Shown here piece by piece: positions 1,530 to 17,087 of a stretch of DNA of 64,000 nt (the stretch's first letter is position 1; every line of letters begins with the position of its first letter). Made by a program: the position numbers and the translations under genes. Source of the stretch: an uncultured Bdellovibrionales bacterium. GTDB lineage: Bacteria; Bdellovibrionota_C; UBA2361; OMII01. Below the pieces are notes generated by a model. That model was not told where the DNA came from. It worked only from the letters and a program-made list of their open reading frames with translations, and searched no databases. The stretch lies in assembly GCA_964413875.1 (NCBI GenBank), contig CAYPUA010000012.1, positions 8,068 to 72,067 on the forward strand, given 5' to 3'.

Positions 1530-1714
1530 GATGTCCACCTAGTGCGCCCCCTACTACTGCCTCGTTGAGAAAGTTTTTCCACCTAACGACGTTGCAGCCT
1601 TGAACGATGCAGTAGCCATATCTAGCGTGTTTTCGGCGCGAAAGGCGCCGAACGCGAACAACCCTAGCGCTGCCTTTAACGGAATGAAGGTGATAAGACT
1701 TTTTGACAGCATCA

Positions 1715-3826
1715 CTACCGCGATACCAGCCCCCACAAGCCAATCTGTTCAACCCGAATTGCTGGGTCTAACTCACCGAAGGTAAGCACGAAGAGCTTCT
1801 TAGCAGCGCCACGAGTGACGGAAAGAACCTTCGCTTTAGTATCCTCTGAGCACAGGATCGCGACCGGAACAACGCCAAGTTCGAGGGTCGGCTTCAAAAC
1901 CGCTTGGAGTCCGTTACAGAGGGCGTCGTAGGTTTCAGGCTCGACTGCGAGCGGTAACGACTTCCCTCCGAGCTCCGCTTCCTCAAGCACCTGTTCGACC
2001 TCGGCTGCCAGCGAAATGACGCGCAGCGATTTTGCCGGACCGATAAACCGGCGTAGCACCTGCCTTCGTCGGCCCGAGCGGATGTGATCAACGACGCTTG
2101 ACGCATTTACTGTACTCTCATTATCGAGAGTGACCCCGCTTGTGGAGCAGTACGAAGCGACTCCTTCAGCCACCGCGCGGAAGTCTCGAACACTGATCCC
2201 CTGCCTGATTAATTCCTGAAGAATCTCGGCTAGCTTTGGAACAGATACGAATTCACGCCCGAAGCCCTCCCCGATCAGTCCCGGATGCCGCTTCTCTACT
2301 TGCCGCAAGAGCGAGTGGACGTCTGTCGCAGAGATGAACTCCTCTGGATGTTGGAGACAGAAGCTAGCTATCCGGAGTCCGATGTACTCGAAGAAGTCGT
2401 AGCTCTTAATCGATGCCGCATCGAGCATTTTGCGAACTTTTGGGGAGTTGCTCGTCCAGAATATCTTGTGACCGGAAACCGGATGCTCCTCAGTCAGCAA
2501 GACATTGAGGCCAAGCATTGGCGCCTGCGATGAGGAGATCTCAACGAGGAGAGCATCTGGCAACACACGACCCGAGAACATCTCTACCCCACCATGCGTA
2601 ACGCGGTACGAGGACGCCGCGCCGAGTTCATCAGTGACTACCCGGACGTTCGGCATCAACAAGCCGACATCTCCAAATAGCGCTGCACGGAACTGCGTCC
2701 ACCAAGCCACATATCGAGGCACCGCATTACGGTACGAACGGAAGAGCACCGCGGCGTCGAGAGACACCTCTATGCTCTCTGCGTCACTATCGAGCTCTGA
2801 GCCAGAGCCCTGAGGCTGCGGCAACCCCGTCATACGCGAGAAGTCGGTCTGCTGAAGCGCCATCCCCGCCTGACTGCGAAGCCGTCGCGTCAACACCAGC
2901 CCTGCGCCTGCCGCGACGACACCAACCGCCATGAAAGGAAGCGTGGGGATACCCGGAAGCACACCGAAGACCGCCAGGATGCCGGCAGTCACGAACAGCA
3001 CTACCGGTTGGGCGAACAGCTGCGCTCTCAGGTCAGAGCTCAAACTTGAGTTCTCTGACGAAGAGACGCGAGTCACGATAATACCGGCACAGATGGATGT
3101 CAGGAGACTCGGAATCTGCGTGACGAGCCCATCACCAACCGTCAGGACCGTGTAGGTCTGGACTGCGTCGGAAACTGACTGCCCCGACGAAATGCCCATG
3201 AACATGCCACCACAGATATTGACCAGAATGATGAAGAGGCCGGCGATCGCGTCGCCCTGCACAAACTTCATTGCTCCGTCCATCGAGCCGTAGAGCTGCG
3301 ACTCTCTCCGAAGCTCATCTCGCTTGCGCCGAGCCTCCTCCGCCGAAAGCAGCCCGGCTCTCACATCGTTATCAATCACGAGCTGCTTTCCGGGAAGCGC
3401 ATCGAGGGCGAACCTTGCTGCCACCTCCGAAACGCGCATCGCGCCCTTCGAGATGACGATAAAGTTCACCACCGTAACGATCGAGAAGATAATAATACCG
3501 ACGAGAATCTCGCCTCGGATGAGAAACGTTCCAAAGGCTTCGATGACCTGGCCTGCGTTTCCTTCGCTGAGAATCAGTCGAGACGATGCCACGTTGAGTC
3601 CGAGGCGAAAGAGCGTACTGAGAAGAAGAATAGTTGGAAACGTGTACAGGGCCGCGGAATTGGCGACGTACAGGCCAACAAGCAGCAGCAAGATGGAGAA
3701 AGAGAGGTTTACGACCAGCAGGATGTCGAGCAGCGGCGTGGGCAGAGGCACTATCAGCATAGCTGCGATGGCAACCACGAGCGCCATGAGCACAAAATCT
3801 GAGTAACGCAACCGGCCCTGCATCAT
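1715..3826 (-). CDS. flhA: FHIPEP-family export-gate protein (FlhA / SctV type): 8-TM N-terminal domain plus large cytoplasmic C-terminal domain.
   Basis: 703-aa ORF. It contains a near-perfect FHIPEP signature 'RVSEVAARFALDALPGKQLVIDND' (compare R-[LIVM]-[GSA]-E-V-[GSA]-A-R-F-x-L-D-[GSA]-[LM]-P-G-[KR]-Q-M-x-I-D). The N-terminus resembles FlhA ('LPLPTPLLDILLVVNLSFSILLLLVGLY', 'TFPTILLLSTLFRLGLNV'). A cytoplasmic domain of ~370 aa follows. The gene is on the same strand as tadC and begins 42 bp after it. Confidence 0.85.
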   Translation of the reverse strand: MMQGRLRYSDFVLMALVVAIAAMLIVPLPTPLLDILLVVNLSFSILLLLVGLYVANSAALYTFPTILLLSTLFRLGLNVASSRLILSEGNAGQVIEAFGTFLIRGEILVGIIIFSIVTVVNFIVISKGAMRVSEVAARFALDALPGKQLVIDNDVRAGLLSAEEARRKRDELRRESQLYGSMDGAMKFVQGDAIAGLFIILVNICGGMFMGISSGQSVSDAVQTYTVLTVGDGLVTQIPSLLTSICAGIIVTRVSSSENSSLSSDLRAQLFAQPVVLFVTAGILAVFGVLPGIPTLPFMAVGVVAAGAGLVLTRRLRSQAGMALQQTDFSRMTGLPQPQGSGSELDSDAESIEVSLDAAVLFRSYRNAVPRYVAWWTQFRAALFGDVGLLMPNVRVVTDELGAASSYRVTHGGVEMFSGRVLPDALLVEISSSQAPMLGLNVLLTEEHPVSGHKIFWTSNSPKVRKMLDAASIKSYDFFEYIGLRIASFCLQHPEEFISATDVHSLLRQVEKRHPGLIGEGFGREFVSVPKLAEILQELIRQGISVRDFRAVAEGVASYCSTSGVTLDNESTVNASSVVDHIRSGRRRQVLRRFIGPAKSLRVISLAAEVEQVLEEAELGGKSLPLAVEPETYDALCNGLQAVLKPTLELGVVPVAILCSEDTKAKVLSVTRGAAKKLFVLTFGELDPAIRVEQIGLWGLVSR

Positions 3827-3868
3827 GCTAAATCGGACTCCCCTTTCACCACCTGTGCCATCACTACA

Positions 3869-4789
3869 TCACATAGACGTTACGATCTGAAGTCCGAACC
3901 CGATCAAGAGTATGGCGAGGTATCCGAAGAATACCAGCGCCACGGGAGCAGTAGCTGCTAGCTCAAGTTTTTTGATCTTCTCCTCAATGCGAGCCTCACG
4001 CTGAGACGAAACGCTGTCTGCCAAATCTTGAAGCTGCTTACTGATCTCTCCACCGTGCTTGGCGACCTGCGAGAGCGCCAGGAAGGCATGCTTAAGGTCG
4101 TTGTGCCCCTGAAGCTGCCCTACTTCGGTTAGTGCTTCTTCAAGGCTCGAACCTGACTTTATGTGGAATTGCGCATACCGAAGGAGCTCTGTAACGGGGT
4201 TATGAGTATCACGCTCGTCGGCCATCTGAACGATCCGCATGAGGCACGGTCCGATATCGAGGGAGCTGCTAACCCCGATCGATACCTGTTCGATTACGAG
4301 TGGTAAGTAGAACAAGATCTCATCTTGGCGGCGATTGATTCGGCGCTCAAGGACCTTGAAGGGAATATAGAGCCCAAGAATTAAACCTACCAATGCAAAT
4401 AACAGCACCTGCTGCGTCCCCCCGAGCCCCTTGCCGAGGAGAGCTAAGACTACCACTGATATAATCGGAACCATCACCTGCAAGCGTTTGAAGTCGGACT
4501 TCTGCTTGCTGGAAAAAATGCCGGCCCGGAAGAGCTTCTCCTCTAGTGATGGCTCCCCTCCCTTTTTCTTTTCCTTGATCACTGACTTCCGAAGGCGATC
4601 TAGCTCCTCACCACTCTCGTCCTTCTGTATGCGCTGACGAAGCTCAGCCATCGACTGGCTGTACTGCTCAGCCGCCATCAGGCCCCGGTAGCTTCGCTGC
4701 GTCGCCGAGTAACGTTGGTACAGCAGGTAGCCCCCGGTAACTATCGCTACGATCGCTGCAATGACTGGAACGAGAAGCGATGAGTCCAT
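3869..4789 (-). CDS. tadC: Tad/Flp pilus assembly inner-membrane platform protein TadC-like (T2SS-F/GspF fold).
   Basis: ORF 3869..4867. I trimmed the start to the Met of 'MDSSLLVPVIAAIVAIVTGG' (ATG at 4787-4789) so that it begins 4 nt after the tadB stop at 4794. TM helices and a TadC-like C-terminal half ('LEEALTEVGQLQGHNDLKHAFLALSQVAKHGGEISKQLQDLADSV'). Confidence 0.8.
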   Translation of the reverse strand: MDSSLLVPVIAAIVAIVTGGYLLYQRYSATQRSYRGLMAAEQYSQSMAELRQRIQKDESGEELDRLRKSVIKEKKKGGEPSLEEKLFRAGIFSSKQKSDFKRLQVMVPIISVVVLALLGKGLGGTQQVLLFALVGLILGLYIPFKVLERRINRRQDEILFYLPLVIEQVSIGVSSSLDIGPCLMRIVQMADERDTHNPVTELLRYAQFHIKSGSSLEEALTEVGQLQGHNDLKHAFLALSQVAKHGGEISKQLQDLADSVSSQREARIEEKIKKLELAATAPVALVFFGYLAILLIGFGLQIVTSM

Positions 4790-4793
4790 GGTC

Positions 4794-5780
4794 CTATACC
4801 TTGAGCTTTGTAACCTGCCTGACCCAGAAAATGCCGAGGAGAATGGCGCACACCCCACCCTGACCAACCATGCGGCCCGTCGGATGTGTCCAAGTCAGAA
4901 CAACACACTGCGGCCACGTGAAGTACATGTAGAGTTCAAGCGCAGCAAGCACCCCAAGAATGAACCAGATAGAGCCTCTCTGTTGTCCAACCGCTGCGTT
5001 CGCAGCCTGCCGAAAGTACTGACGACGCCGAACCTGTCGAGCGAGCCGATCGAGCGTGTCGGAGAGGTTTCCGCCAACCCGCTTGCTGAGGATTAGAGCC
5101 TGCACGAAAAGCTCAATCTCAGGGTGGTAGATATCTTCTCCAAAAGAGCCGATGGATCGCTCCTCCGAAACGCCCATCCGAAGACGTTCAAGCATCAGGT
5201 CAACTTCACGTTTCACGAGCGAGCCTTCCTCTAGCCCGCTTGCAGCTGCCTGAAGGGCCTGCGTCACATTGAGGCCGGTCTTTATCATTCCCACAAAGCT
5301 GAGCAGAAACTGCGGAAAGTCGCTGTCAAACCTCATAAAGCGGTTGTTGATGCGGCGGTTGAGAAGCCAGTTCAGAAGCAGCGGTCCTGTAAAGAGCGAG
5401 ACGACCTGCAACATAGTATCGAAGTACAGTCGGGTAACGAGGAACGCGAGCAAACTGACTATTATTTGGGCCAGGCTGAATGCGTACGGAGGTATGTGAG
5501 ATAGCTCGGCGAACTTTAACCGCTTGCGGATTGTGAGCTGCGTATCAGAGACTTTCTCGACCGCTATTTGCTCCAGGGCCGTACTCGTAATAGAGGCGGC
5601 AGCTTCTCCATTTTCTAGGCCCGCCTCCGCACGCTGGAGCTCAACTATCGAGCGCATCTGACGGCGAAGAGTCATCGGAGAGACAGCTCTGCCAGAGATC
5701 GGGAGGCGCATGATGAGCGCTGCGGCGAGCACCACCGCGATCACTCCAGCAACTATGGCGAGCACAGCCATCGGTTCCAT
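4794..5780 (-). CDS. tadB: Tad/Flp pilus assembly inner-membrane platform protein TadB-like (T2SS-F fold).
   Basis: 328 aa with an N-terminal TM helix. Typical TadB motifs: 'FPQFLLSFVGMIKTGLNVTQALQAAASGL', 'ALILSKRVGGNLSDTLDRLARQVR'. Begins 10 bp after the cpaF stop. Confidence 0.8.
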   Translation of the reverse strand: MEPMAVLAIVAGVIAVVLAAALIMRLPISGRAVSPMTLRRQMRSIVELQRAEAGLENGEAAASITSTALEQIAVEKVSDTQLTIRKRLKFAELSHIPPYAFSLAQIIVSLLAFLVTRLYFDTMLQVVSLFTGPLLLNWLLNRRINNRFMRFDSDFPQFLLSFVGMIKTGLNVTQALQAAASGLEEGSLVKREVDLMLERLRMGVSEERSIGSFGEDIYHPEIELFVQALILSKRVGGNLSDTLDRLARQVRRRQYFRQAANAAVGQQRGSIWFILGVLAALELYMYFTWPQCVVLTWTHPTGRMVGQGGVCAILLGIFWVRQVTKLKV

Positions 5781-5790
5781 GACGCCAGCG

Positions 5791-7353
5791 TTATCCTCCC
5801 TTGAGCGTTACCCCAATAATCGGCGCGAAGGTAATCTCCGGTGGTGAGTCACCGAGGAAAATTCCGTCTGCCTTTAGCTGCTCATCAAAATTGCTCGACC
5901 ACGATTCAACGCGCCACAAGGGCTTCGCCCCCTGCTTTATGAGTGAGAACATCGGGCGAACCTGTATTGTGCCCTCAACGAAATGTCCTACTTCTATCAC
6001 TTCGGCGATTCGAGGCCTGCCGGTACTCTTCTCGCGAATCAGCCAAACGACGCAGTCCACTGCGAGCGCTATCTGCTGCCGAATGATGTCTATGGCGACG
6101 GACTTCTGAGCTCTGCCCAGTAGGCTCTCAAGACGCACAAGCGTCTCTCGGGCGTTGCGCGCGTGGATAGTGGACATACCCACGTGGCCGGTCTGTGCGC
6201 TCTCCAGAAATGCCTCGGCCGCGAACGGGGTTCGCATCTCTCCAAGGATAACTCGTGTTGGAGTCATTCGGAGTGTTGTCTTGATATGCTCCTGGAGCGT
6301 TACCTCGCCAGCTCCCTCGGAATTTGCGGGGCGTGACACGAGCGAGCGAAAGTAAGGGTGTTGGAAATTGAGCTCTGGGGTGTCCTCAACCGCAACGATC
6401 GACTCACTAGAGCCAAACTGCGTGGCGAGACACTTTATCAGGGTTGTCTTTCCTGTTCCGGTCTCCCCGGCCACCATCATCGTAGCGAGTCCGCAGCGCA
6501 CCAGAGAGGCTAGGTAGTTCACGATCAGGGGCGGTGCAACCTGGTAGGCGATAATGTTCTCAAGGCTTGCCTCGCTGATGCGTGGAATTCGGATACACAG
6601 TAGTGGCCCACGCTGGCCACACACACTCTCATGCACCGCGCAGAGGCGCACACCGTTCGGAAACGACGCATCGACCGTGTGCTGCTGTGTCGTGAGTGAC
6701 TTGCCAAGCCGCAACAGGAGCCGATCAATGAAGGTTACGTACGCTTGCTGATTCGGCCAACTGAGGCCGGTAGTCTCACTGATCTTACCGCGCTGCAGCA
6801 CGACCGTCTTGTAGTCGTAGACATGGATGTCAGTTACATCCCGGTTGTCCATAAGGGGCTGCAGAACACCCCACCCCACCAGGTCTTTCTGGAGGTGAAT
6901 GATGATATTCACGCGCTCGATATCGTCGAGCGCTTCGCCACGCTTGCGGATGACTCGGTCAACTGCCTGAGCGATAACCTGCTCGGTCGCAGCAACAGTC
7001 GTCATCTGCTGCTGGAGAGTAAGGTCACTTCCGAGCTCGCGGCGGGCCTCGCGCATGACTGTCGATGCTGCTGCAGACATCTCCTGGGTTTTCGTCGCAG
7101 CAGGTTTAGCTGGCTGTTGAGCGGGCTGTGGCGCTGCGCTTTCTGCTGGGGCGGTGGCCTTGGCTTGGTCGGTTGCGGGCTTATCTGAAGGACTGCTGCC
7201 GCGTGCTGGACCCGAGCCCTCCGAACCTGAGCTGCGCCCGTGCGATGCTCGGGTCGAGAAGAGCCCAAGCAGGTCGTCTTTGGTATCTTTTTTTGAGCCT
7301 GACATAACCTTGCTCTCCAGTGCCTGCCTCGTTGCAAGAAGCAGCGCACGCAA
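5791..7353 (-). CDS. cpaF: CpaF/TadA-type secretion ATPase (T2SS-E / VirB11 superfamily) with a long low-complexity Ser/Ala/Pro-rich N-terminal extension.
   Basis: Walker A 'GETGTGKTTL'. Conserved CpaF blocks: 'IVAVEDTPELNFQHPY', 'TPTRVILGEMR', 'GHVGMSTIHA'. The first ~130 aa are a low-complexity A/P/S/Q-rich region; an internal start is possible. Confidence 0.9.
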   Translation of the reverse strand: MRALLLATRQALESKVMSGSKKDTKDDLLGLFSTRASHGRSSGSEGSGPARGSSPSDKPATDQAKATAPAESAAPQPAQQPAKPAATKTQEMSAAASTVMREARRELGSDLTLQQQMTTVAATEQVIAQAVDRVIRKRGEALDDIERVNIIIHLQKDLVGWGVLQPLMDNRDVTDIHVYDYKTVVLQRGKISETTGLSWPNQQAYVTFIDRLLLRLGKSLTTQQHTVDASFPNGVRLCAVHESVCGQRGPLLCIRIPRISEASLENIIAYQVAPPLIVNYLASLVRCGLATMMVAGETGTGKTTLIKCLATQFGSSESIVAVEDTPELNFQHPYFRSLVSRPANSEGAGEVTLQEHIKTTLRMTPTRVILGEMRTPFAAEAFLESAQTGHVGMSTIHARNARETLVRLESLLGRAQKSVAIDIIRQQIALAVDCVVWLIREKSTGRPRIAEVIEVGHFVEGTIQVRPMFSLIKQGAKPLWRVESWSSNFDEQLKADGIFLGDSPPEITFAPIIGVTLKGG

Positions 7354-7654
7354 TCCCTTCAGAAAAACCTAGCGGGCACCTAGTTTCGGCCCCCGAGTGC
7401 ATCGGTCCCCTAATGGTATGTTCGGCTGTCGATAAAGTTTTGCTTAGGCATTGTGTCGTAATTCCAGGTACTAACGACGTCTCTAGTGATGGGTCTGTTG
7501 AGCTATCGAGCCAGCAGGGTTAACGCCGATAGCTATAGCTGTTGTAATTACAGGTGCTTAGTGGTCCTAATGAGCGGGCGTCTGCTACAAATGGCTGTCC
7601 CACCGAAAAGCGACGGGGAGCGCCTCAGTTCACTAATACCGTTCTAGTGGTCCC

Positions 7655-8614
7655 TCACTGCGGCTTACCGTTGAGAGCCGCCACCTCTTCGGGAGACAGA
7701 AGCTTTCCGGCCACGATGAAGTAGTCTCGACCTCCAACCGTTACCTTCCCCTCAGTCTGTACCTGCTGCGTCGGTTGCTTTGTGCCGACTCCGAGAATCG
7801 TCTCTATTCCGATGGTGGTGTTCTGGGGCGACTCCACGGTGTCTTCGTCTCCGCGCAAGGCGAGGCTCAGCGTCCCCGCTTTAGCGGCGAGCTGAATCTT
7901 AGCGGCATCGTCTCCGGTAACCATCAGGGTGACTGTTGTCTGCGCTTTCGGATCTGAGGGAGAGGCACCTGGCTCTCCTGAGGTACTACGAGAAGCCGAT
8001 AGAACCTTCGCATTCTGGACAATGACTGTAAGCGTTGGCTTCTGAACTCGAGTTGGAGAGAGCATCACGTCTACTTTTGCGCCAGCTCGCGCCCATCCCT
8101 CCACGCTGGTGGTGGAATCAACAGACATAGTCACTGCGCGAAATCCATCTGGGATTTTCGCCTGAATCTGGTTGAGCGGCGGGTTGGAGGTAATGTAATC
8201 GAGCATCACAGGCTCTCCCGCGGCGATAAAAGAAGCTGCGTACGCTGAGCGGAGCTGGTCAAAGCTTGTCACGATATTTGCGCTTCCTCCTACTATCGCT
8301 CGGGTCTCTTTCCGAAACATGCTCGGATCAAGCTGCATACCGGTATCGATTTTCTGGATCGGAACAAGCACGTCGAGCGTCTCTGTGACAGGCTGCGGGA
8401 TGGACTGGGCTGTTTGCTGTGGTCCGGAGCTCGATGTTTTGCCGATGACGTAGAAGACCACGATGCCGAGGCACAAGAAGAGCAGGGCCAACAACACGAG
8501 GGTTGTGACGGGGGAATTGCCTTTCTGACTTTTTAGCGGACGAGAATTGCTAGTGGGCATGGCCCTCAGAGGTGTTCTGTTTTCAAAATTTATGAACTCG
8601 CGGGGTGTTGTCAT
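7655..8614 (-). CDS. cpaB: CpaB/RcpC-family Flp pilus assembly protein.
   Basis: N-terminal TM helix 'VTTLVLLALLFLCLGIVVFYVIG', followed by a CpaB-like periplasmic region ('TLTVIVQNAKVLSA...TVTLMVTGDDAAKIQLAAKAGTLSLALR'). An alternative start is at the Met of 'MPTSNS' (8560). Confidence 0.75.
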   Translation of the reverse strand: MTTPREFINFENRTPLRAMPTSNSRPLKSQKGNSPVTTLVLLALLFLCLGIVVFYVIGKTSSSGPQQTAQSIPQPVTETLDVLVPIQKIDTGMQLDPSMFRKETRAIVGGSANIVTSFDQLRSAYAASFIAAGEPVMLDYITSNPPLNQIQAKIPDGFRAVTMSVDSTTSVEGWARAGAKVDVMLSPTRVQKPTLTVIVQNAKVLSASRSTSGEPGASPSDPKAQTTVTLMVTGDDAAKIQLAAKAGTLSLALRGDEDTVESPQNTTIGIETILGVGTKQPTQQVQTEGKVTVGGRDYFIVAGKLLSPEEVAALNGKPQ

Positions 8615-8740
8615 AACCTACGACGCAGAAAGGGGGCCTTCGCAACGCGAAAGCCCCCTCCTGGTTCAGCAGCGCAGCACAAGGCTTGAATGGCGAGCAA
8701 CTGCCACCAACCGGAGCTTGCGCGGGCAAGTAACAGATTA

Positions 8741-8920
8741 CTAGTTAGCACCCGTAATGGCGCTGGAAGCCGAGCTGAACTTTCCGGTGATTGAAGTCCC
8801 CAGCGTGGTAACTGCCGCGATGGCAACAACCGCGATCAGCGAAACGAGTAGCGCGTACTCCACCATCGATGCTCCACGCTCAGAGCGTGCGTCATTCTTA
8901 ACCATCTCATCCTTTTTCAT
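8741..8920 (-). CDS. flp: Flp/Fap-family pilin precursor (59 aa). Not in the ORF track because it is shorter than 60 aa.
   Basis: Manual minus-strand translation gives MKKDEMVKNDARSERGASMVEYALLVSLIAVVAIAAVTTLGTSITGKFSSASSAITGAN. It contains the Flp prepilin signature (G/ASMVEYALL followed by a hydrophobic helix). It lies directly upstream of cpaB on the same strand. Confidence 0.7.
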   Translation of the reverse strand: MKKDEMVKNDARSERGASMVEYALLVSLIAVVAIAAVTTLGTSITGKFSSASSAITGAN

Positions 8921-9105
8921 AACAACCCTATCGTTCTAAGTTACCCGTTAGCTGCCCGAAGGCAATCCTAAGAGAGCTGGTTGGAACACATTGGGGCTTT
9001 CCAACACTCCTGCCGTAGGAACCGGCAGGACCCGCGAGCCACCCCAGCGTAATCGCGCCAGGTGCAACCTCACAAGAGCCTTTTTATTCTACCATCCGAC
9101 CCTAC

Positions 9106-9127
9106 GGGCTTCGAAGCCGATTTTTTC
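9106..9127 (+). terminator. Intrinsic-terminator-like element on the plus strand (perfect 6+6 palindrome GGCTTCGAAGCC followed by a T6 run) inside the tadZ-flp intergenic region.
   Basis: 'gggcttcgaagccgattttttcg'. Two more hairpins lie upstream on the same strand: gttggaa/ttccaac at 8980-9005 and cctgccg/cggcagg at 9009-9029. No plus-strand gene lies upstream of it. Confidence 0.3.
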
Positions 9128-9170
9128 GCATCTCGCCAGAATAACAGACACAAACCGAGTCCGAGGGGTG

Positions 9171-9199
9171 AAAAACCATTTAGCGCAGACACTTGCGCT
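9171..9199 (-). terminator. Candidate rho-independent terminator downstream of tadZ on the minus strand.
   Basis: Hairpin AGCGCA-GACACT-TGCGCT (9182-9199). In the minus-strand transcript it is followed by AAAUGGUUUUUCAC. The stem is short (6 bp). Confidence 0.3.
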
Positions 9200-9253
9200 C
9201 GACCACGGCATCATTTGACGGAGCTCTAACTGCGGTCGCTACCGCTCTCATAC

Positions 9254-10543
9254 TCAGCGGGTCGAGGCCTCGCCCTTCCTCCCGAACATGCGAGAGAGCC
9301 AGCTTGATGTGGTGTTGGCGCGGGGTCGCAGGGGGCGCCCCGATCCATCAGGAGCGCCTGGCAGCAGAGCGGTGGTATCCTCGACCCCTATCAATCCTAG
9401 TTCTCGGGCGACCTTGTCGAGCGTTTGGCGCATGGACTTGCTACCCATGCTGTACAGCGTTTGACTACTACCTGCCCAAAGGGCTGCCTTCGTCTCAAAC
9501 GGGAGGGCGGGCAACCTCCAGGGCGCTGCCCCGAGCCGATGAGCGGGCTCCAGCTCAGCCGCAATCTGCTGCACCGTCATCAGTGCGTTCGAGCAAGGGT
9601 TTACGAGGAAGCAGAGTCGGTCGGGGCTACCCACCAGATTCTTGATAAAGTTGAGATAAAGATCGACGGCCGTTAGACCTAAAATCGTGTCGTCGATTAC
9701 CACAAGCACTACATCCGCGCTTCGGATGAGTGCACCGGTAGCTGGCCCCAGCCTGCCGCAGGTATCGATCAAGATGACATCGAAGAGCACTCGAGAGAGT
9801 TCGAGGATGCGTTGCGCAATCCCGATACCATCGGCGTGACATACGAGGTCAATTGACTCCGCGAATTTATCCGGAGCCATCAACACAGAAACCTCACTCG
9901 AGATCGGAACGAGCGCATCTCGCATCGACTCGCGATCTATTTCTCTGCTGCCGTTCACCCAAGCGCTGATTACCTTCGCCTCAGCTCCGGTTACCGTCAG
10001 GGAACGACTTAGGTCATGCGTCTCGACGTCAAGGTCCCACAGCATAGTGCGGCGGTTGTAGACACTGCAAACCTCCGCAAGAGCAGCCGTAGCAGACGTG
10101 GCTCCCACTCCGCCTTTCGCCTGCACTACCGCCACGACTCGTCCCTCGTGAGTCCGCCCTTCCTTTCGGAAGTCTGAGTGGATTGCAACGAGCTCCTGTA
10201 AGAAGTCGAGTGGGCTGGCACTATCCGGAAATACTTTTCGAACACCAACCGAATGGGCAGACCGAAACGCCCCACCTCCGTAGGAGCTATCGCTCACAAA
10301 CATGACGATCTGGATCCAGGGTGCAAGAACCTGTGCCTGGCGTGCGATGGCGATCGCTCGCTCGCCCACACCGGATCCAATGACAAGAACATCGGCCTCA
10401 ACGACGCGCTCAGAGAACTCCTGCTCGTTAACAAGCTTAACCTTGAGATCGAGCATCTCCATGTCACTGCGACTGAACGACTCTACTCGTCTAGCGCAGA
10501 AGGCCTGAGATTCGTTTGAGCTATCAACAATGAGAAGTTTCAT
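9254..10543 (-). CDS. tadZ: TadZ/CpaE-type pilus-assembly localisation protein: atypical receiver-like N-terminal domain plus ParA/MinD-like ATPase domain.
   Basis: 429 aa. N-terminal 'MKLLIVDSS...' CheY-like fold. Deviant Walker A 'VVAVVQAKGGVGATSATAALA', in which the second Lys of KGGxGKT is replaced by Ala. MinD-like core 'VILIDTCGRLGPATGALIRSADVVLVVID'. Confidence 0.75.
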   Translation of the reverse strand: MKLLIVDSSNESQAFCARRVESFSRSDMEMLDLKVKLVNEQEFSERVVEADVLVIGSGVGERAIAIARQAQVLAPWIQIVMFVSDSSYGGGAFRSAHSVGVRKVFPDSASPLDFLQELVAIHSDFRKEGRTHEGRVVAVVQAKGGVGATSATAALAEVCSVYNRRTMLWDLDVETHDLSRSLTVTGAEAKVISAWVNGSREIDRESMRDALVPISSEVSVLMAPDKFAESIDLVCHADGIGIAQRILELSRVLFDVILIDTCGRLGPATGALIRSADVVLVVIDDTILGLTAVDLYLNFIKNLVGSPDRLCFLVNPCSNALMTVQQIAAELEPAHRLGAAPWRLPALPFETKAALWAGSSQTLYSMGSKSMRQTLDKVARELGLIGVEDTTALLPGAPDGSGRPLRPRANTTSSWLSRMFGRKGEASTR

Positions 10544-10552
10544 GACGGGTTG

Positions 10553-12007
10553 CTAAAAAAGCTTCTCCAAAAGCCCCGGAGCGAAAAGCTTCAGGAACAC
10601 AAAACCAAAACCTATCCCCACAAGCGCGGCACCACCCATGGCAATCGCATCACCGACCATCGTGCGCTTTGACACCTCTGGCTCGGCGTACTTTTTAGAC
10701 AGAGCTGCGAACTGGCCGGGGGCCGGCCCTTTGCGTTGCCCCGCTCTCGGCGTGCTCCCCCAATCGTCAGACACAACATCTGGGGCTGGCTCTACTCGCG
10801 CTCCACCCGGCTTCGTCGAACCAGTTGATCGATTCTGAGACTCAAGTGCTTGGCCGACGTACGACGCGTCAAGAACTTGGGTGTTTGCCTTCTCAATCAC
10901 CTGGTCTCCGTCCGTGCCACTCCGCACCCGCGTGCCGCCGCCGCGACCGAGCATGGCCCCTGACGTGACTTGCGTATCACCGATAGGTCCCGCCGACACC
11001 GCGATATTCGTCTGTCGCCCCCCTGTCGGCGGAGCTGCATCAGCAGGAGCGTCCGAAGGCCCATCGCTGAGAGAAGGGCCAACGTACGGGGTCCCTTGCC
11101 CAGCTCCCTGGTTCGGCAAAAACAAGCCGCCAGTGATTGCAGAGCGCAGTCCTAAGTCCGACGCTAGCTTCTGCAGATCAAAAAACATGTCCATTCCTGC
11201 TTGGTAGCGACTTTCGGGCTCCCGCTGCATCGCTTTGAGGATGATTGTATCCAGGCCCGCTGGACACTCTGGCCGCAGCTTGCTGGGGGACTCTGGATCG
11301 GTCTTCAGACGCTTGGTCATCGTCGCGTAAACGCTATCGCCGCGGAACGGGGACTCACCCGTCACCATCTCGTACGCAAGGATCCCAATCGCATAGATGT
11401 CTGATCTCCAATCGACTTGCGAGCGCAGCATGTACTCAGGCGCCACGTAGTCGATCGTTCCGACAACTCCTCCATGCTCAGTGAGCTTCGGGCCGTGGCG
11501 ATTTCTTGCGATTCCGAAGTCCGCAATCTTTACATTCCCCTCGTTGGTCAAGAGAATGTTCTCTGGCTTAAGGTCTCGGTGCACGATACCGGCATCGTGA
11601 ATAGCTTGCACACCTGCCGCCATCTGACTCAAGACGCGGATAATTTCAGCGATTGGCATCCGCTCTGGGTGACCGAGTCGTTCCGCGAGGTCGCCTCCTC
11701 CAACGAACTCCATCGTGTATGCGACGAGATCCCCGTCGCGGAGATACTCGTACGCTCGCACCACGTTCGGATGGGAAACACCGTAAGAGGCAAGGATCTC
11801 ATTGCGGAATCGAGCTGAAGCGACCCGATCCTGTGCGACCTCAGGGAAGAGCACTTTCGCCGCTACCATCTGCCCCTGCAGCTCCCGATGCCGGCAGGCG
11901 TACACCAACCCCATGCTACCGGAGCCGAGGCACTTGACGACCTCGTACTTACCCCCAATCACGGTACCCGGCTGGAGGCTAATGATATGCTCGTCGGTCA
12001 TGGTCAC
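10553..12007 (-). CDS. Hanks-type Ser/Thr protein kinase with a disordered linker and a C-terminal TM anchor.
   Basis: Intact catalytic motifs: 'GSGSMGLVY', 'VAAKVL', 'HRDLKPENILL', 'DFG', 'GTIDYVAPE'. C-terminal hydrophobic 'AIAMGGAALVGIGFGFVFLKLFAP'. Confidence 0.9.
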   Translation of the reverse strand: MTMTDEHIISLQPGTVIGGKYEVVKCLGSGSMGLVYACRHRELQGQMVAAKVLFPEVAQDRVASARFRNEILASYGVSHPNVVRAYEYLRDGDLVAYTMEFVGGGDLAERLGHPERMPIAEIIRVLSQMAAGVQAIHDAGIVHRDLKPENILLTNEGNVKIADFGIARNRHGPKLTEHGGVVGTIDYVAPEYMLRSQVDWRSDIYAIGILAYEMVTGESPFRGDSVYATMTKRLKTDPESPSKLRPECPAGLDTIILKAMQREPESRYQAGMDMFFDLQKLASDLGLRSAITGGLFLPNQGAGQGTPYVGPSLSDGPSDAPADAAPPTGGRQTNIAVSAGPIGDTQVTSGAMLGRGGGTRVRSGTDGDQVIEKANTQVLDASYVGQALESQNRSTGSTKPGGARVEPAPDVVSDDWGSTPRAGQRKGPAPGQFAALSKKYAEPEVSKRTMVGDAIAMGGAALVGIGFGFVFLKLFAPGLLEKLF

Positions 12008-12026: not shown

Positions 12027-12959
12027 CTACCCTTGTGAGGAATTACCCATCACGAGACAGACATGAAAATTACGATCCCCGAAGCTTACGATATCGCCAT
12101 GGCTCAACACCGCTTTCTCGCCAGACAGTAGAATCTCCTCTCCTGTGTCGAACTTGCGTATACGGGTGCCACTCTCTGAGAGCTGGTCGAGCACCTGAAT
12201 CGAACCGCCAGCGGCAACGCGCATGACCGCATGCGAAGGCGAAACACTTTCGTGATTCAAAACGAGACAATTGCTTGCCGGATCTGGCTGGGCTGAAACA
12301 ATGAGTCGCCCAGTTCTCAGCTCCAGGTACGACCCTGCTGGCTCATAGTCGAACGAAACGAGGAATCCCACCAGCTGTGTGCAGGACTTCCAGTATACCT
12401 CTTCGGCTCCAACTGCAGCTTCTGTCAGCATATGTTCCTCTGGGACATGAACAAACTCCGGTGCCGGGTCGGGGGTAAACGGTGCTGGTTCTGGGATCGC
12501 ACGGTGTTCGGTCACAATGTCTCCTGAGCTGGCGAAGAGCCCAAGCGGATCCCACATTGGAGGCTTTCCCCCGCCTTCTATCACGTCAGTATCGTGCGGC
12601 ACCGACTCAATTGCTTCGGCTTCTGACACTTCAGAAAGTTCTCCGTCCGCATACACGGATTGACCAGTGGCAACCTCTTCATCTCCCGGCTCAACTACCT
12701 CTGCCACCGGAGCAACTGGGGCTTTTCTCACTCCCATATCGCTACTAACTCGCGGGGTCTCCCAGTGAGCTTCATCAGCCTGAACAGGGGCCTCCAAGCC
12801 GCCAATCCGGCTACCCTGAGATTCTCCGCCCAAACGAGCACGCATACCTCCGGTGAGGTTTGAATCGAGAATGACCGTATGGTTCTTAGCCCGGTTTGCG
12901 CTCCCCTCGCGAACGCGCGGGGTAGAACCACGAGGCAATTTGCTACTACTGTCTTCCAT
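12027..12959 (-). CDS. FHA-domain protein (disordered acidic N-terminal region, C-terminal FHA domain).
   Basis: The C-terminal ~100 aa match the FHA fold: '...GRLIVSAQPDPASNCLVLNHESVSPSHAVMRV...GEKAVLSHGDIVSFGDRNFHV'. Confidence 0.8.
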   Translation of the reverse strand: MEDSSSKLPRGSTPRVREGSANRAKNHTVILDSNLTGGMRARLGGESQGSRIGGLEAPVQADEAHWETPRVSSDMGVRKAPVAPVAEVVEPGDEEVATGQSVYADGELSEVSEAEAIESVPHDTDVIEGGGKPPMWDPLGLFASSGDIVTEHRAIPEPAPFTPDPAPEFVHVPEEHMLTEAAVGAEEVYWKSCTQLVGFLVSFDYEPAGSYLELRTGRLIVSAQPDPASNCLVLNHESVSPSHAVMRVAAGGSIQVLDQLSESGTRIRKFDTGEEILLSGEKAVLSHGDIVSFGDRNFHVCLVMGNSSQG

Positions 12960-12968: not shown

Positions 12969-14018
12969 TCATCGCAAAAATTGAAAAGCCAACGCACCAG
13001 CGATCGTTGCTCCCGCCGCAAGGACCGTCATGATTGCCAGAAACACGAAATGCTTAAAAACGCCCGTTCCGGTTGGAGATCCCACACGCTGTTCGCTAAC
13101 TACCGTGACCTTAGAATCCTCAGACGGCTGAGAGGTACGGAGCACTCCGGGCATCCTAATGACCGCGACAGAGATGTTGTCGAATCCACCCCGCTCGCGG
13201 GCAAGCTCAATGAGCTTTGCTCCCGCATCTTGAGGCGAAAGGCCTGACGCGATGCTTCCAATCTCTATGTCCGGAACTAAACTGTAGAGCCCGTCAGAGC
13301 ACAGAACGACCACATCGCCCTCTCCATCAGCATCAGCTGGCCAGAGCCAGAGCCGCTGCGAGTGCACGTTTGGGCTTGGCTCAGAACCGAGACAACGAGT
13401 GAGCACATGCGCTTCGGGATGGCTCAGTGCTTCTTCAGCCCGCAGCTTCCCATCGTCAACGAGTGTCTGGACAAACGTGTCATCGACCGTTAGCTGCTGA
13501 ACGGCTCCATCTCGCACCAGGTAGGCGCGCGAATCTCCGATGCTAGAGATGACTGCTTCCCTGCCATCAAAGCGCATCGCCACAGCGGTTGTACCCATCC
13601 CCTGGAACTCCGGATTTTTGCGCCGCAGAAGTATGATTCGATTTGCTTCCCGAAATGCCGCGCCAAGCACATCGATGTTAGGGGCACTCTCAGATGATTG
13701 CTGAATGGAGCGTGATACCGCGTCTACTGCGAGCTGAGCTGCAAACTCTCCACCCGCTGCCCCGCCCATCCCGTCGCACAAGAGCCAAGTTATGGCGCTC
13801 CCATCGCGGATGGTCTCGACGCGATCCTCGTTCAGCGTTCTTTCGCAGCCGCAGTCGGTGAAGCAAGAAGCTTCTAGAGAGCTCTTCGGTGATCGGAAAG
13901 ACCGCCGGGACTCTCCCTGCATTTGACCTCGTAGCATACGCAATGCTTCCCTCCCGTTGAGGTCCACTCGCCGGCGCAACGCCGAGCGCACCTCCGAGGA
14001 CACCAGACGACCAGCCAA
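12969..14018 (-). CDS. PP2C-family (PPM) Ser/Thr phosphatase with a C-terminal TM anchor.
   Basis: 'LLCDGMGGAAGGEFAAQLAV', 'ISSIGDSRAYLV', 'LCSDGL', 'ERGGFDNISVAVI'. C-terminal hydrophobic 'FVFLAIMTVLAAGATIAGALAF'. Confidence 0.85.
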   Translation of the reverse strand: MAGRLVSSEVRSALRRRVDLNGREALRMLRGQMQGESRRSFRSPKSSLEASCFTDCGCERTLNEDRVETIRDGSAITWLLCDGMGGAAGGEFAAQLAVDAVSRSIQQSSESAPNIDVLGAAFREANRIILLRRKNPEFQGMGTTAVAMRFDGREAVISSIGDSRAYLVRDGAVQQLTVDDTFVQTLVDDGKLRAEEALSHPEAHVLTRCLGSEPSPNVHSQRLWLWPADADGEGDVVVLCSDGLYSLVPDIEIGSIASGLSPQDAGAKLIELARERGGFDNISVAVIRMPGVLRTSQPSEDSKVTVVSEQRVGSPTGTGVFKHFVFLAIMTVLAAGATIAGALAFQFLR

Positions 14019-14559
14019 CCAGTCCCCTGAAGCCTCGATCTAACCACTCGGCAGAAGCCTGGCGTTACTCAACACTTCCCCTCTCTTTTTGATGCCCCAG
14101 CACCTCTGCGCTCGGCCCAGAGGTGGAATAAAAGTTGATCTCCGGGGGGTTTTTGAGGTTCTTATGTTACCTATTGATCTTTATGAGATAATTAAAGAGG
14201 GGCGTCTCACATTGAGCCCTGTTTCTTACTGTGCGGGCCGTGTCGAAAAGGCTACGATGAACGGGTTTAGGAAACGGTCGCGGCCTCCTTTAAGGTTGGA
14301 GTTTTTTTGAGCTCTCGTTCTATCCCACCGATCTCTTGGCTGGTTTTGACCGCTCTTGCCGTGGTGCTGCTGTCCCCCTACGCAGGCTGCCACATCCTAA
14401 CCTCCGCTCCGAGCGATCCAGCTACAGATCAGGAAGCTCTAGATCGCGGCGCGGGGGCGGCGGAAGAAGCTCCCCAGGGTCGCCGGCTGAACGATCTCGA
14501 CGCCCTTCTGGGCCAGAAGTGACGAACAGGTAACGTGTCTGCGTATCGAGTATAGACGT

Positions 14560-15141
14560 ATGGTAACTCTCAACCGAATTTACACACGCACTGGCGACGA
14601 TGGCTCGACGGGTCTGGTAGGTGGAGCTCGCACGCGTAAAAACTCCCCGAGAGTAGAGGCCTACGGCGATATCGATGAGCTCAATTGCCTCATAGGTATT
14701 TGCGTGACTCTTGCCACAGGGGAACCTGAGGCCGGCATTCGAGACAAACTCACTCTCATACAAAACGAGCTCTTCGACCTCGGTTCCGAGCTTGCCACGC
14801 CTCACGGAAGTAGCTGGCAAGGAATGCTTAAGACGGAGGTCACTCACGTTGAACGGCTGGAGCGCTGGATAGACGAACTCAACGAGTCGTTGCCTGATCT
14901 CAAATCGTTCGTCCTCCCGGGTGGCACACCACTGAATGCGCATCTGCATCTGGCGCGTGCTGTGTGTAGACGTGCCGAAAGGGCTATCGTGTCGCTCAAC
15001 GACGTAGAGCCATTATCGGAACCACTCATTCACTACGTGAATCGTCTCAGCGACCTACTCTTTGTAATGAGCCGTGCAGCAGCACAGATCGCTGGCGCAT
15101 CTGAATTTCTCTGGATTCCGGGTGCCTCCAGACCCAAGTAA
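14560..15141 (+). CDS. PduO-type ATP:cob(I)alamin adenosyltransferase.
   Basis: 'RIYTRTGDDGSTGL', 'RVEAYGDIDELNCLIG', 'IQNELFDLGSELA', 'FVLPGG': classic PduO-type motifs. Confidence 0.85.
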   Translation: MVTLNRIYTRTGDDGSTGLVGGARTRKNSPRVEAYGDIDELNCLIGICVTLATGEPEAGIRDKLTLIQNELFDLGSELATPHGSSWQGMLKTEVTHVERLERWIDELNESLPDLKSFVLPGGTPLNAHLHLARAVCRRAERAIVSLNDVEPLSEPLIHYVNRLSDLLFVMSRAAAQIAGASEFLWIPGASRPK

Positions 15142-15160
15142 GGCTCTCCGTCGACGAGCT

Positions 15161-15709
15161 TCAGCTGCCCCGGACGCCAATTCGGTGAGAGAAGACGAGT
15201 TCCCCTCCAAGGGTTCCTACCCAAACGACGAGAGCAAGCTGCAGGATGAGCACGAGCAGGTACAGTGCCCTGAAGAGTGGCTGGTGCCGGCGTGCGACAG
15301 ACGCTATCCACGCAAAGGCGCCGAGGAGTACGGCGTTTATGAGCACGAAGCGGCCAACCGCATGGTGCACACCCAGGGCAGATTCAGCCAACTCAGACAC
15401 TTCACCCATCGAACTACTCGCTTGGTATCCTGAAAGGAATGCCGCAATACTGCTGACGACAACCGCTGGAACCAGAAGAAGCCGAGCGACTGAGCCGCAC
15501 CGGGCAACGGCGGGAGCCCAGCAAAGGCCCTCTACGCAGCACAACAGCAGGGTGAACGCTAACGGCATACCGCTCAAGGGGGGATGAAGCTCTGGCATGC
15601 TACTGACGATAGCCGGGAAAATTGCGAGAGGAAAGGCAGATGAGGGGTGGTTTTTGCCGTCTGAAGCATCACCCCCGACTCGGTCGCGACTCTGCGGATA
15701 GCTCCTCAC
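15161..15709 (-). CDS. Hypothetical polytopic membrane protein.
   Basis: Several predicted TM helices. No family assigned. The start is probably internal (Met of 'MPELHPPLSG'). Confidence 0.4.
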   Translation of the reverse strand: MRSYPQSRDRVGGDASDGKNHPSSAFPLAIFPAIVSSMPELHPPLSGMPLAFTLLLCCVEGLCWAPAVARCGSVARLLLVPAVVVSSIAAFLSGYQASSSMGEVSELAESALGVHHAVGRFVLINAVLLGAFAWIASVARRHQPLFRALYLLVLILQLALVVWVGTLGGELVFSHRIGVRGS

Positions 15710-15734
15710 AAGCTACCAGCATGAAGCCGGAGTG

Positions 15735-16907
15735 CTATCGCAGCCGTTTTACGATGAGAAGGGTAACATCGTCACGCAGAAGTCGGTCCTGACGAAACGA
15801 GTTAAAATCATCGAGAATTGCGCCAAGCATCTGTGAGGCGGTGCTCTCTGGCGTGGTGCGACTCAGGGCCGCAGCTAATCTCTCAAATCCGTACGGTGAC
15901 ATTGCACGATTCTGAGCCTCACTGATGCCATCCGTAAAGAGCAGCAGTGCGTCTCCGGGTGCTAGGCTGTCCTCTTCGAGAGTGAAGCGCCCTGATTCAT
16001 CGAAACCGATCGGAAAGCCCTGGCCTTTGAGCTGCCGGACGGCCCCCTGCTGTCGGGACAACACTAGTGCTGGCGGGTGCCCTGCCCTGGACCATTGCAC
16101 CTTACCGCTCGATGGATGGTAGAGGCAGCCGCCCAACGTTACGAATCTACCCGAGGGGATCTGTGGTCCAAGGAACCGATTCATCTGCTTGAGTAGCTCA
16201 TCGGGCCGCATTTTATCTGCTGCCGTCATCGCCAACTTCGTCATACTCGCGATGAAAGCCGCCGACAAACCGTGACCAGAGACGTCCGCGACCTGGAGTG
16301 ACAGCTTTCCGTCCGAATCAACGCTGGCGAAGTACCAATCTCCACCAACCTCTTCAAGCGGCTGATACGAAACTGCCAGCTGGTAGCGCTCGTCGGATGG
16401 CAATGCGCGTGGCAAGAGGCTCTGTTGAATCGCTCGAGCTTCTTCAAGCTCTTTCCGGAAACGCTCGTTGTGATCCCGGAGAGCAGCATTGATCTCGGCA
16501 AGCGTTCCCTGCAGCTCGTCTCCTCCGGCCTGCTTGCGCATCCTGAGCTGGGTTGCGATGCGACCGGCGAGAGTTCCAACCGAGAACGGCGCCTGAACGA
16601 TCTCCACTTTATCGATTATATCCGGCTCGTACAGCTCAGAGCTATTCTCCGGAGAGATACACACAATTGGTATCCCCCTCGTGTTCTCCTGGGACCTGAA
16701 AAATGCGCACATGTCGGGCACATCGCCGAGCACTCGGCCATCGATCAGTATTAAATCGACGTTGGTACGGGAAATTAAATCGGGCAGCGCAACGTTGTTG
16801 GTTGCACCGAGCACGGCATACCCCAAGCGCTCCAGAAATCGCGGCAATTTCTGATCGTTGTTACCGAGGTAAAATATGAGGTCCATGTAAGCGATGCCGA
16901 GAGGCAA
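15735..16907 (-). CDS. Response-regulator receiver domain fused to a PP2C/SpoIIE-type phosphatase (RsbU-like).
   Basis: N-terminal receiver ('DLILIDGRV', 'GIPIVCIS'). C-terminal PPM: 'VGGDWYF', 'LQVADVSGHGLSAAFIAS', 'LLLFTDGISEA'. Confidence 0.8.
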   Translation of the reverse strand: MPLGIAYMDLIFYLGNNDQKLPRFLERLGYAVLGATNNVALPDLISRTNVDLILIDGRVLGDVPDMCAFFRSQENTRGIPIVCISPENSSELYEPDIIDKVEIVQAPFSVGTLAGRIATQLRMRKQAGGDELQGTLAEINAALRDHNERFRKELEEARAIQQSLLPRALPSDERYQLAVSYQPLEEVGGDWYFASVDSDGKLSLQVADVSGHGLSAAFIASMTKLAMTAADKMRPDELLKQMNRFLGPQIPSGRFVTLGGCLYHPSSGKVQWSRAGHPPALVLSRQQGAVRQLKGQGFPIGFDESGRFTLEEDSLAPGDALLLFTDGISEAQNRAMSPYGFERLAAALSRTTPESTASQMLGAILDDFNSFRQDRLLRDDVTLLIVKRLR

Positions 16908-17087
16908 GAACGCACCTCTCTCTCCCCCTAACTGCCTGTAGTATCGGACAGAGTGAACATCTTCCTGAGGAAATCCGGCGCCTTTGCGGCCTATGGCTGC
17001 CGCTGGCTACGTCGATACTGGCTAACCCCCTCTTTTCTCGTGCTGTTATGCCTACCCACCATGCGGGGTGCGGCTGCTGCTAACGAG

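Follow-up and report, generated by a model that had tools for sequence, protein, structure and literature searches.

A gene of the FHIPEP family downstream of tadC in a conserved Tad-type pilus operon of an uncultured Bdellovibrionales bacterium

Gene content of the operon

The stretch of DNA analyzed here, 64 kb of contig CAYPUA010000012.1 from an uncultured Bdellovibrionales bacterium (below, the window), carries on its minus strand an operon for a Tad-type (type IVc) pilus in which tadC is followed by a gene for a protein of the FHIPEP family. To our knowledge, FHIPEP proteins are known solely as the gates of flagella and injectisomes. An earlier note on this DNA had named Flp, CpaB, CpaF, TadB, TadC, FHIPEP, TadZ, and a kinase module at this locus, with the FHIPEP gene encoding 703 amino acids (aa) and lying 42 nucleotides (nt) past tadC on the same strand; listing of the open reading frames (ORFs) and profile scans recovered every one of these genes on the minus strand at the same coordinates. 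Related loci retrieved for comparison carry L numbers. The block, from its head to the left end of the window, reads as follows.

12969..14018, minus strand: PP2C-type Ser/Thr phosphatase heading the conserved block (Pfam PP2C_2, 52.9 bits; NCBIfam Stp1_PP2C, 198.6 bits)
12027..12959, minus strand: FHA-domain protein with a disordered N-terminal region and a C-terminal FHA domain (Pfam FHA, 27.5 bits; cut-off, 20.7)
10553..12007, minus strand: Hanks-type Ser/Thr protein kinase with an intact kinase domain (Pfam Pkinase, 179.4 bits)
9254..10543, minus strand: TadZ/CpaE-like ATPase of the ParA/MinD family (Pfam AAA_31, 49.2 bits; NCBIfam CpaE_hom_Actino, 51 bits, under its cut-off)
8741..8920, minus strand: Flp-type pilin of 59 aa with the prepilin motif G/ASMVEYALL (Pfam Flp_Fap, 49.6 bits; cut-off, 32.2)
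7655..8614, minus strand: CpaB/RcpC periplasmic pilus-assembly protein with an N-terminal membrane anchor (TIGR03177, 110 bits; cut-off, 71; Pfam RcpC, 72.5 bits)
5791..7353, minus strand: CpaF/TadA-type secretion ATPase (Pfam T2SSE, 109.7 bits; best NCBIfam match, the TadA-family model TIGR03819, 212.7 bits, short of its cut-off of 373)
4794..5780, minus strand: TadB platform protein (Pfam T2SSF, 53.4 bits; cut-off, 25.2)
3869..4789, minus strand: TadC platform protein of 306 aa (Pfam T2SSF, 46.9 bits; start taken from start-codon analysis)
3827..3868, minus strand: tadC-FHIPEP junction of 42 nt with a Shine-Dalgarno-like AAGGGGAG site
1715..3826, minus strand: FHIPEP-family protein of 703 aa (Pfam PF00771, 584.5 bits; cut-off, 29.1; profile positions 2-656 of 657)
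1545..1714, minus strand: extra sequence of ~170 nt between the FHIPEP stop and the start of gene X, seen by comparison with L001 and L002
1..1538, minus strand: 5' part of gene X, ~510 of ~760 codons by translation, exiting the window at its left end (Pfam Pkinase, 20.3 bits, E 4e-4)

The core set of a Tad/Flp system (Flp, CpaB/RcpC, CpaF/TadA, TadB, TadC, and TadZ/CpaE) is encoded together, with Pfam or NCBIfam scores above cut-off for Flp, T2SSE, T2SSF twice, CpaB, and AAA_31, which places the machine among the Tad (type IVc) systems. The TadC ORF reaches position 4867, and the ATG at 4789 is the likelier start, fitting the 306 to 310 aa of its orthologues. No match resembling a promoter or a terminator was found in the 42 nt between tadC and the FHIPEP gene, and the operon extends past the latter into the conserved gene X, which starts at 1538 or 1529. 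The N-terminal ~110 residues of CpaF are of low complexity and without an FHA domain in Pfam. TadD and TadG were not found in the window, TadE and TadF were not sought among the short ORFs, and Rfam and tRNA scans of the window gave nothing in the operon, their sole match being one tRNA-Leu.

The ~170-nt insert is lacking in L001 (97% identical) and L002 (94% identical), where FHIPEP and X lie 13 to 15 nt apart. It holds a hydrophobic ORF of 60 aa (1554-1736) and has a predicted folding energy of -53.5 kcal/mol, a value with no shuffled baseline for comparison. A repeated mobile element was ruled out, as no second copy occurs in the window or in L001 to L027. At the other end of the block, the minus-strand genes upstream of the PP2C gene (14422-18962) comprise a 175-aa ORF without a match, a gene for a DUF2231 membrane protein, one for a SpoIIE-type PP2C phosphatase (156.6 bits), and two ORFs of 427 aa and 159 aa, the latter weakly matching Rieske. 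The SpoIIE-type enzyme would give the kinase module a second phosphatase close by.

Conserved linkage and lineage of the FHIPEP protein

Of the 17 places examined, the window counted, 15 have tadC immediately before the FHIPEP gene (the window, L001-L005, L007-L010, L012, L014, L015, L025, and L026), with FHIPEP identities to the window protein from 97% down to ~36% and, in the 14 related loci, a junction of 1 to 116 nt. Five loci from genome collections, whose metagenome-assembled genomes are labeled Bdellovibrionota, Bdellovibrionales, Deltaproteobacteria, Proteobacteria, and "Bacterium," keep the gene order at FHIPEP identities down to 66%. Assemblies carrying the cassette are GCA_019694465.1 and GCA_017302875.1, both of clade A (defined below), and CANLJX01, CAZZJR01, OMIG01, JAFMJG01, and JAULVA01. 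The linkage persists at 57%, 52%, and 51% identity in L008-L010, which also have the same genes downstream (X, a thioredoxin-like gene, and tig-clpP-clpX-lon); in L012 (43%), where the cassette is kept among other flanking genes and the stop and start codons overlap; and in L014 (37%) and L015 (36%). The upstream sequence of L011 is too short to judge, and L013 (10001-12130) holds an orphan FHIPEP gene (P0137, 40% identity) on a 495-kb scaffold with no Tad genes within 10 kb. A pilin-like gene with an N_methyl motif lies ~700 nt downstream of this orphan on the opposite strand.

Controls behaved differently. Among the matches listed by a metagenome scan with a clade alignment, 80 FHIPEP loci at 30 to 36% identity, all canonical, were compared; TadB, TadC, or CpaF lay within 10 kb in none of these 80, and tadC stood upstream of the FHIPEP gene in none of the 70 with more than 1 kb of upstream sequence, whereas FlhB/SctU was found within 10 kb in 52 of the 80 and FliP/Q/R/N in 31 to 36, the figures for FliP/Q/R being 31 to 34. 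Because the linkage holds in 15 of 17 places of the clade against 0 of 70 controls, over deep divergence and between varied flanks, it is beyond chance and is not an accidental landing. These comparisons show that the block PP2C-FHA-kinase-TadZ-Flp-CpaB-CpaF-TadB-TadC-FHIPEP-X has been inherited as a unit, and the earlier view that the FHIPEP gene is integral to the Tad operon is borne out by this synteny in relatives as well as by the lineage of the protein.

Scores on the two equivalog models, FlhA (TIGR01398) and hrcV/SctV (TIGR01399), set the Tad-linked proteins apart from both families.

Window FHIPEP: 517.8 bits on the FlhA model (below its cut-off of 772.1) and 565.8 on the hrcV/SctV model (below its cut-off of 692.25)
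Five other clade members: 396-479 on FlhA, 471-514 on hrcV/SctV
E. coli FlhA: 949.6 on FlhA, 600.3 on hrcV/SctV
Thermomicrobium FlhA (distant): 879.6 on FlhA, 651.1 on hrcV/SctV
LcrD (Yersinia): 648.8 on FlhA, 1051.5 on hrcV/SctV
Mesorhizobium SctV: 613.2 on FlhA, 884.4 on hrcV/SctV

The cross-scores between FlhA and SctV lie between 600 and 651, and the Tad-linked proteins fall lower still (396-518 on FlhA and 471-566 on hrcV). An exhaustive search of 1.84 billion representatives gave a shelf of ~40 clusters (50% identity) above 450 bits, followed by a fall to ~400 bits, and at 90% identity the Tad-linked FHIPEP proteins form more than 120 clusters. In a neighbor-joining tree of 151 sequences with four FlhA and four SctV references, built on best-scoring representatives, bootstrap support was 98.5% for clade A, which includes the window protein (as well as the orphan of L013), 99% for clade B, and 99.5% for the two together. 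A larger neighbor-joining tree with 71 added control sequences placed none of these inside A+B and gave support of 94 (A), 81 (B), and 78 (A+B) of 100, values that were probably lowered by several badly extracted control ORFs with distances above 2.8. The taxonomy of these clades is that of the labels on their metagenome-assembled genomes (Bdellovibrionota, Bdellovibrionales, Oligoflexia, and "Deltaproteobacteria"). Since the proteins fail both equivalog cut-offs, score below the cross-scores, and form a monophyletic clade, their sequences show a third FHIPEP lineage, apart from FlhA and SctV.

The protein itself is full-length and keeps the charged membrane-domain residues on which a gate depends. 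Its modeled architecture comprises a membrane domain, a linker, and a four-subdomain cytoplasmic domain with the predicted FlhA-C/SctV-C fold; an AlphaFold2 monomer model reached a mean predicted local distance difference test score (pLDDT) of 73 overall and ~85 to 90 in the cytoplasmic domain, Foldseek gave target-normalized template modeling scores (TM-scores) of 0.72 to 0.84 to the C-domains of FlhA, CdsV, MxiA, InvA, and YscV, and a sequence search of the PDB matched full-length SctV (7alw, E 7.6e-114). The equivalents of E. coli FlhA R94, R147, R154, D158, R185, K203, D208, and D249 are all kept in the window protein, and across 44 clade A and 22 clade B sequences these charged positions show either no change or conservative replacements. 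Positions D456, F459, and T490 of Salmonella FlhA, at which flagellar chaperones bind, read H/S/L here. The gene is full-length in all relatives, 64 columns are invariant among 21 FHIPEP sequences down to 33% identity, and the ratio of nonsynonymous to synonymous substitution rates (dN/dS) against four relatives is 0.024 to 0.059 (0.024 at a dS of 0.72), showing strong purifying selection.

Gene X follows the FHIPEP gene directly in every related locus reaching that far, except L013. It encodes a cytoplasmic pseudokinase domain, one membrane helix (residues 302-330), and a HEAT-like helical region. A profile of 11 orthologues matched the PknB, StkP, and PknA kinase domains in the PDB with E values of ~1e-25, and it is on this profile search that the kinase fold rests, a single-sequence model (pLDDT 38.9) having been set aside. 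We call X a pseudokinase because the beta3 catalytic Lys, the HRD Arg, the catalytic-loop Lys/Asn, and the DFG Asp are lost in all 11 orthologues. The kinase upstream has HRDLKPEN and DFG motifs in its translation, a tail anchor (hydrophobic residues 454-480), and a kinase domain 70% identical to that of its clade B orthologue. The PP2C phosphatase is also tail-anchored (hydrophobic residues 323-345), with orthologues at the same position in L002, L005, L008, L010, L025, and L026, and the FHA protein is 45% identical to its L025 counterpart over the FHA domain. After X, a thioredoxin/AhpC-like gene stands in every clade A locus that is long enough (L002 14402-14947, L007-L010, and L012); that of the window would fall beyond its left edge, and clade B has an SctD-like gene in this place.

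Loci L025 and L026 of sister clade B carry the orthologous block from PP2C to X, with identities between window and L025 proteins of 58% for TadZ, 64% for CpaF, and 36% for FHIPEP. In L025, six further genes come directly after X.

Gene 1: double-FHA SctD-like protein (Pfam)
Gene 2: FHA plus zinc-ribbon protein
Gene 3: short lipoprotein SctJ (YscJ_FliF, 36.2 bits; cut-off, 24.4)
Gene 4: 72-aa protein
Gene 5: FliJ-like protein (Pfam)
Gene 6: SctQ-like protein (FliMN_C, 42.8 bits; cut-off, 23.8)

The L026 contig ends after the first two of these. The same six-gene module stands alone among unrelated genes in L027 (3437-8471), ending at SctQ, with no Tad genes there and no SctN, SctRSTU, SctV, or secretin adjoining it. 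Searches of 5.8 billion sequences, which reach only relatives sharing exact words, returned 3 clusters when the SctQ-like protein was the query and 6 with the SctJ-like one, a metagenome scan with the L025 SctQ-like protein found no match, and the module has no homologue in the window. The full set of a needleless type III secretion system (T3SS*), that is, SctD, J, I, Q, RSTUV, N, and L, is not present, the window having an SctV-like protein only and clade B adding only SctD-, SctJ-, FliJ-, and SctQ-like proteins. Because the sister-clade operon encodes these proteins, gene content suggests that the ancestor probably combined a Tad machine with a reduced type III basal body.

Other type III partners were not found, in line with the earlier note, which had reported no FlhB, FliPQR, FliI, FliH, or C-ring partners. 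A tblastn search with E. coli FlhB and FliF/G/H/I/J/M/N/P/Q/R gave no match in the 64-kb window, FlhB and FliP/Q/R/N were likewise absent from the 17 clade loci searched with the same queries, and no family of such partners had a Pfam match in window ORFs of at least 150 aa. The genomic association of an SctV was not seen, with no sctU, sctRST, sctN, sctC, or needle genes in the window and no sctU, sctRST, or sctN adjoining any of the 17 loci; nor was that of an FlhA, with no flagellar export neighbors of the flhB/fliPQR/flhF type in the window or the 17 related loci. The orphan fliD that had also been reported is genuine (57637-59043, minus strand; FliD_N and FliD_C, the latter at 153 bits), and no fliS, flagellin, or other flagellar genes lie near it. 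Its neighbors are a 446-aa ORF without a Pfam match upstream on the same strand (59125-60465, minus) and a gene at 56512-57597 (plus).

Elsewhere in the window, a polysaccharide-synthesis cluster (28887-36440, minus strand) encodes an initiating sugar transferase (Bac_transf plus CoA_binding_3), three GT4/GT1 glycosyltransferases, and one GT2 glycosyltransferase, with DinB-like and DCC1-like genes inserted within it. DNA-repair genes are grouped at 43533-50640, where the minus strand encodes an ATP-dependent DNA ligase and a metallo-beta-lactamase-fold protein and the plus strand encodes a photolyase-related protein (DPRP) and an FAD photolyase. The tRNA-Leu(CAA) gene (55035-55119, minus) overlaps the 5' end of the lumazine synthase ORF (54450-55070), so that the start of that gene must be further downstream.

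Candidate roles of the FHIPEP protein

Our results lead us to propose, with moderate confidence, that a conserved Tad-type (type IVc) cassette for pilus and secretion has in the FHIPEP protein a dedicated component that is not flagellar. Judged from gene order and protein families, the presence of this protein in a Tad operon points to a connection, so far undescribed, of two kinds of envelope machines. The protein would form the usual nonameric ring in the inner membrane, possibly acting as a docking or export gate coupled to the proton motive force and working with the CpaF-TadB/TadC platform. By analogy with the model for the Tad-like Kil machine and T3SS* of Myxococcus, substrates of the type III-like part might be loaded onto the Flp filament or carried to their destination by it, and the tail-anchored kinase, the PP2C phosphatase, the FHA protein, and X might constitute a threonine-phosphorylation switch through which an envelope or contact signal triggers assembly.

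The earlier note had gone further in suggesting a composite envelope machine. What stands of this is that the FHIPEP gene belongs to the Tad operon; a physically hybrid machine is something that we infer, and its strongest form, in which the CpaF-TadB/TadC-Flp platform would be housed with or gated by an FHIPEP nonamer, surrounded in some lineages by SctD/SctJ rings and accompanied by an SctQ platform but with no SctRSTU channel and no SctN ATPase, seems to us rather unlikely. Since the sister-clade operon runs on into SctD/SctJ/SctQ-like genes, the protein may not be a lone gate plugged into the Tad machine but may serve, alongside that machine, a reduced type III-like basal body. Three options remain: a ring associated with TadB/TadC directly, a ring within a reduced SctD/SctJ basal body, or a separate machine made concurrently.

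Several observations weigh against a dedicated Tad component of this kind. In the window and its close relatives, the FHIPEP protein is the only type III part within 10 to 64 kb, and we know of no protein channel, such as SctRST provides, that an FHIPEP ring alone would form. A secretin (CpaC/RcpA) and a prepilin peptidase (CpaA/TadV), which bear on how the filament would cross the outer membrane, had no Pfam family match among the ORFs of at least 150 aa in the 64 kb; the gene inventory covers the window, and both may be encoded elsewhere in the genome. Our trees are neighbor-joining trees on best-scoring representatives, with no identified Myxococcus T3SS* SctV included. Finally, the organism carries fliD and is probably flagellated, as Bdellovibrionota are as a rule (PMC13200544).

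The last point raises the question of whether the gene is the organism's flagellar flhA, left beside tadC by historical accident in a lineage with dispersed flagellar genes, as the earlier note had offered as its alternative. A fliD without flagellar neighbors, a typically flagellated phylum (PMC13200544), and the name FlhA given by NCBI to one family member (P0109) would all suit such an origin. However, at 517.8 bits against a cut-off of 772 the window protein scores lower on the FlhA equivalog than do injectisome SctVs (613-649), the clade stands separately in both trees, the clade B flanks (SctD and a short lipoprotein SctJ) are of injectisome and not flagellar type, the cassette is kept across different genomic contexts (L012), and flhB/fliPQR are never adjacent, against flhB/sctU within 10 kb in 52 of the 80 control loci among the matches listed. 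A chance landing of flhA does not fit these equivalog scores, this clade structure, the injectisome-type neighbors in clade B, or the conservation across contexts, and we regard it as improbable. More plausible, if still rather doubtful, is a pair of machines under common control, in which the Tad operon holds just the sctV of a fuller T3SS*-type apparatus encoded at another place in the genome. The two complexes would be made together and might co-localize without forming one structure. Kil and T3SS* of Myxococcus are indeed encoded apart and treated as two co-localizing complexes (PMC12075869, PMC10433427), and the SctD-FHA-SctJ-small-small-SctQ module can stand without Tad genes (L027), being cassette-adjacent only in clade B. 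Against this, SctQ- and SctJ-like proteins form just 3 and 6 clusters in 5.8 billion sequences, compared with more than 120 for Tad-linked FHIPEP, so that most clade A genomes may lack the module (the searches reaching exact-word relatives only), and sctU, sctRST, and sctN adjoin none of the 17 loci.

There is also a slim chance that the FHIPEP protein acts alone and exports no protein, serving the Tad platform as an ion-conducting energizer or sensor, or the kinase module as a scaffold. Residues of the proposed ion pathway in the membrane domain are the ones conserved, the flagellar chaperone-binding positions read H/S/L, SctRSTU is not nearby, and a membrane pseudokinase follows the gene, all of which would agree with such a role, but the cytoplasmic domain, in FlhA and SctV the ring at which substrates and chaperones dock, is retained with all four subdomains and well conserved, and clade B keeps SctQ- and FliJ-like partners that belong to substrate sorting. 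A functionless, decaying relic of a lost type III system might explain why partner genes are missing locally; it is effectively refuted by the selection data, that is, by the dN/dS of 0.024 at a dS of 0.72, the full length of the gene in all relatives, and the 64 columns invariant across 21 sequences, and we give it very little credence.

Related systems and implications

As a Tad component, the FHIPEP protein shares with SctV and FlhA its full-length architecture, the charged gate residues, and C-domain TM-scores of 0.72 to 0.84, and differs from them in scoring below the equivalog cut-offs and cross-scores, in forming a separate clade, and in having tadC and a pseudokinase as neighbors instead of flhB/sctU or fliPQR/sctRST. 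The operon resembles the cpa genes of Caulobacter and the tad genes of Aggregatibacter in encoding Flp, CpaB/RcpC, CpaF/TadA, TadB, TadC, and TadZ/CpaE in the usual order; unlike these, the cassette adds FHIPEP, the pseudokinase, and the kinase/phosphatase/FHA module. The threonine-phosphorylation pathway of the Pseudomonas aeruginosa H1 type VI secretion system (H1-T6SS) consists of PpkA, PppA, and Fha1. There, too, the genes of a contact-dependent envelope machine are accompanied by those for a membrane Hanks kinase, a PP2C phosphatase, and an FHA protein, but the pathway controls a type VI secretion system and not a pilus and has no described pseudokinase partner, and a regulatory role for the module in our cassette would be by likeness only. 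The pathway is cited in PMC8460266.

The closest published parallel to a Tad machine with type III parts, and one that the earlier note's Kil-like comparison fits (PMC12075869), comes from Myxococcus xanthus, where the Tad-like Kil system and the T3SS* have been described (Seef 2021, PMC8460266; Herrou 2025, PMC12075869; also Thiery 2022). Kil recruits the T3SS*, and pilus tips depend on the T3SS* (PMC12075869; Kil/T3SS* also in PMC10433427); a combined delivery complex has been proposed. In both cases, a Tad-type pilus machine is paired with type III export parts without needle or secretin, FHA-domain signaling proteins are associated, and the phyla are predatory or related to predators. In contrast, the Myxococcus clusters are separate and its T3SS* is complete (SctD, J, I, Q, RSTUV, N, and L) save for needle, secretin, and translocon, whereas here an SctV-like gene lies inside the Tad operon with no other type III gene nearby in the lineage of the window; KilF has an N-terminal FHA domain, of which the window CpaF shows no match; and Kil has a secretin (KilC) and a peptidase (KilA), neither kind of which was found in the window.

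Closer in taxonomy, the Tad/Kil-like system of the Bdellovibrio bacteriovorus hit locus (bd0109-bd0119) is a Tad system of the same phylum linked to predation. As described, it has a secretin and no FHIPEP gene (PMC5430801, PMC4267844), and on these grounds we rejected the idea that our cassette is the hit-locus system. In Bradymonas sediminis, the type III export-apparatus genes (YscRSTUV) have scattered locus tags and are induced during predation (PMC7460792). We found no paper describing an FHIPEP gene in a Tad operon in the literature searched, subscription-only literature lying outside that search, which agrees with the claim of the earlier note that the arrangement is undescribed.

Gene fusion and linkage are classical evidence for physical or functional partnership. 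A third, abundant FHIPEP lineage wired into a Tad operon would broaden the picture of FHIPEP proteins beyond flagella and injectisomes, and the physical joining of the gene sets (one type III-like gene in the lineage of the window and five in the sister lineage) bears on a question in bacterial predation, namely, the way in which the Kil pilus works together with the needleless T3SS* of Myxococcus and whether the two make up a single complex. According to a 2025 review, Kil and T3SS* co-occur only in Cystobacterineae (spelled "Cystobacterinae" there), and our data indicate that joined Tad and type III-like genes occur outside the Myxococcales, to which their co-occurrence was thought to be confined (PMC12428579). 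If a hybrid machine does exist, it would be the first machine to which both of the great superfamilies of filaments and secretion contribute core parts, and it would give genetic "fusion" evidence for the composite Kil/T3SS* complex hypothesized in Myxococcus. The cassette offers a minimal system for testing the partnership between Tad and type III machines.

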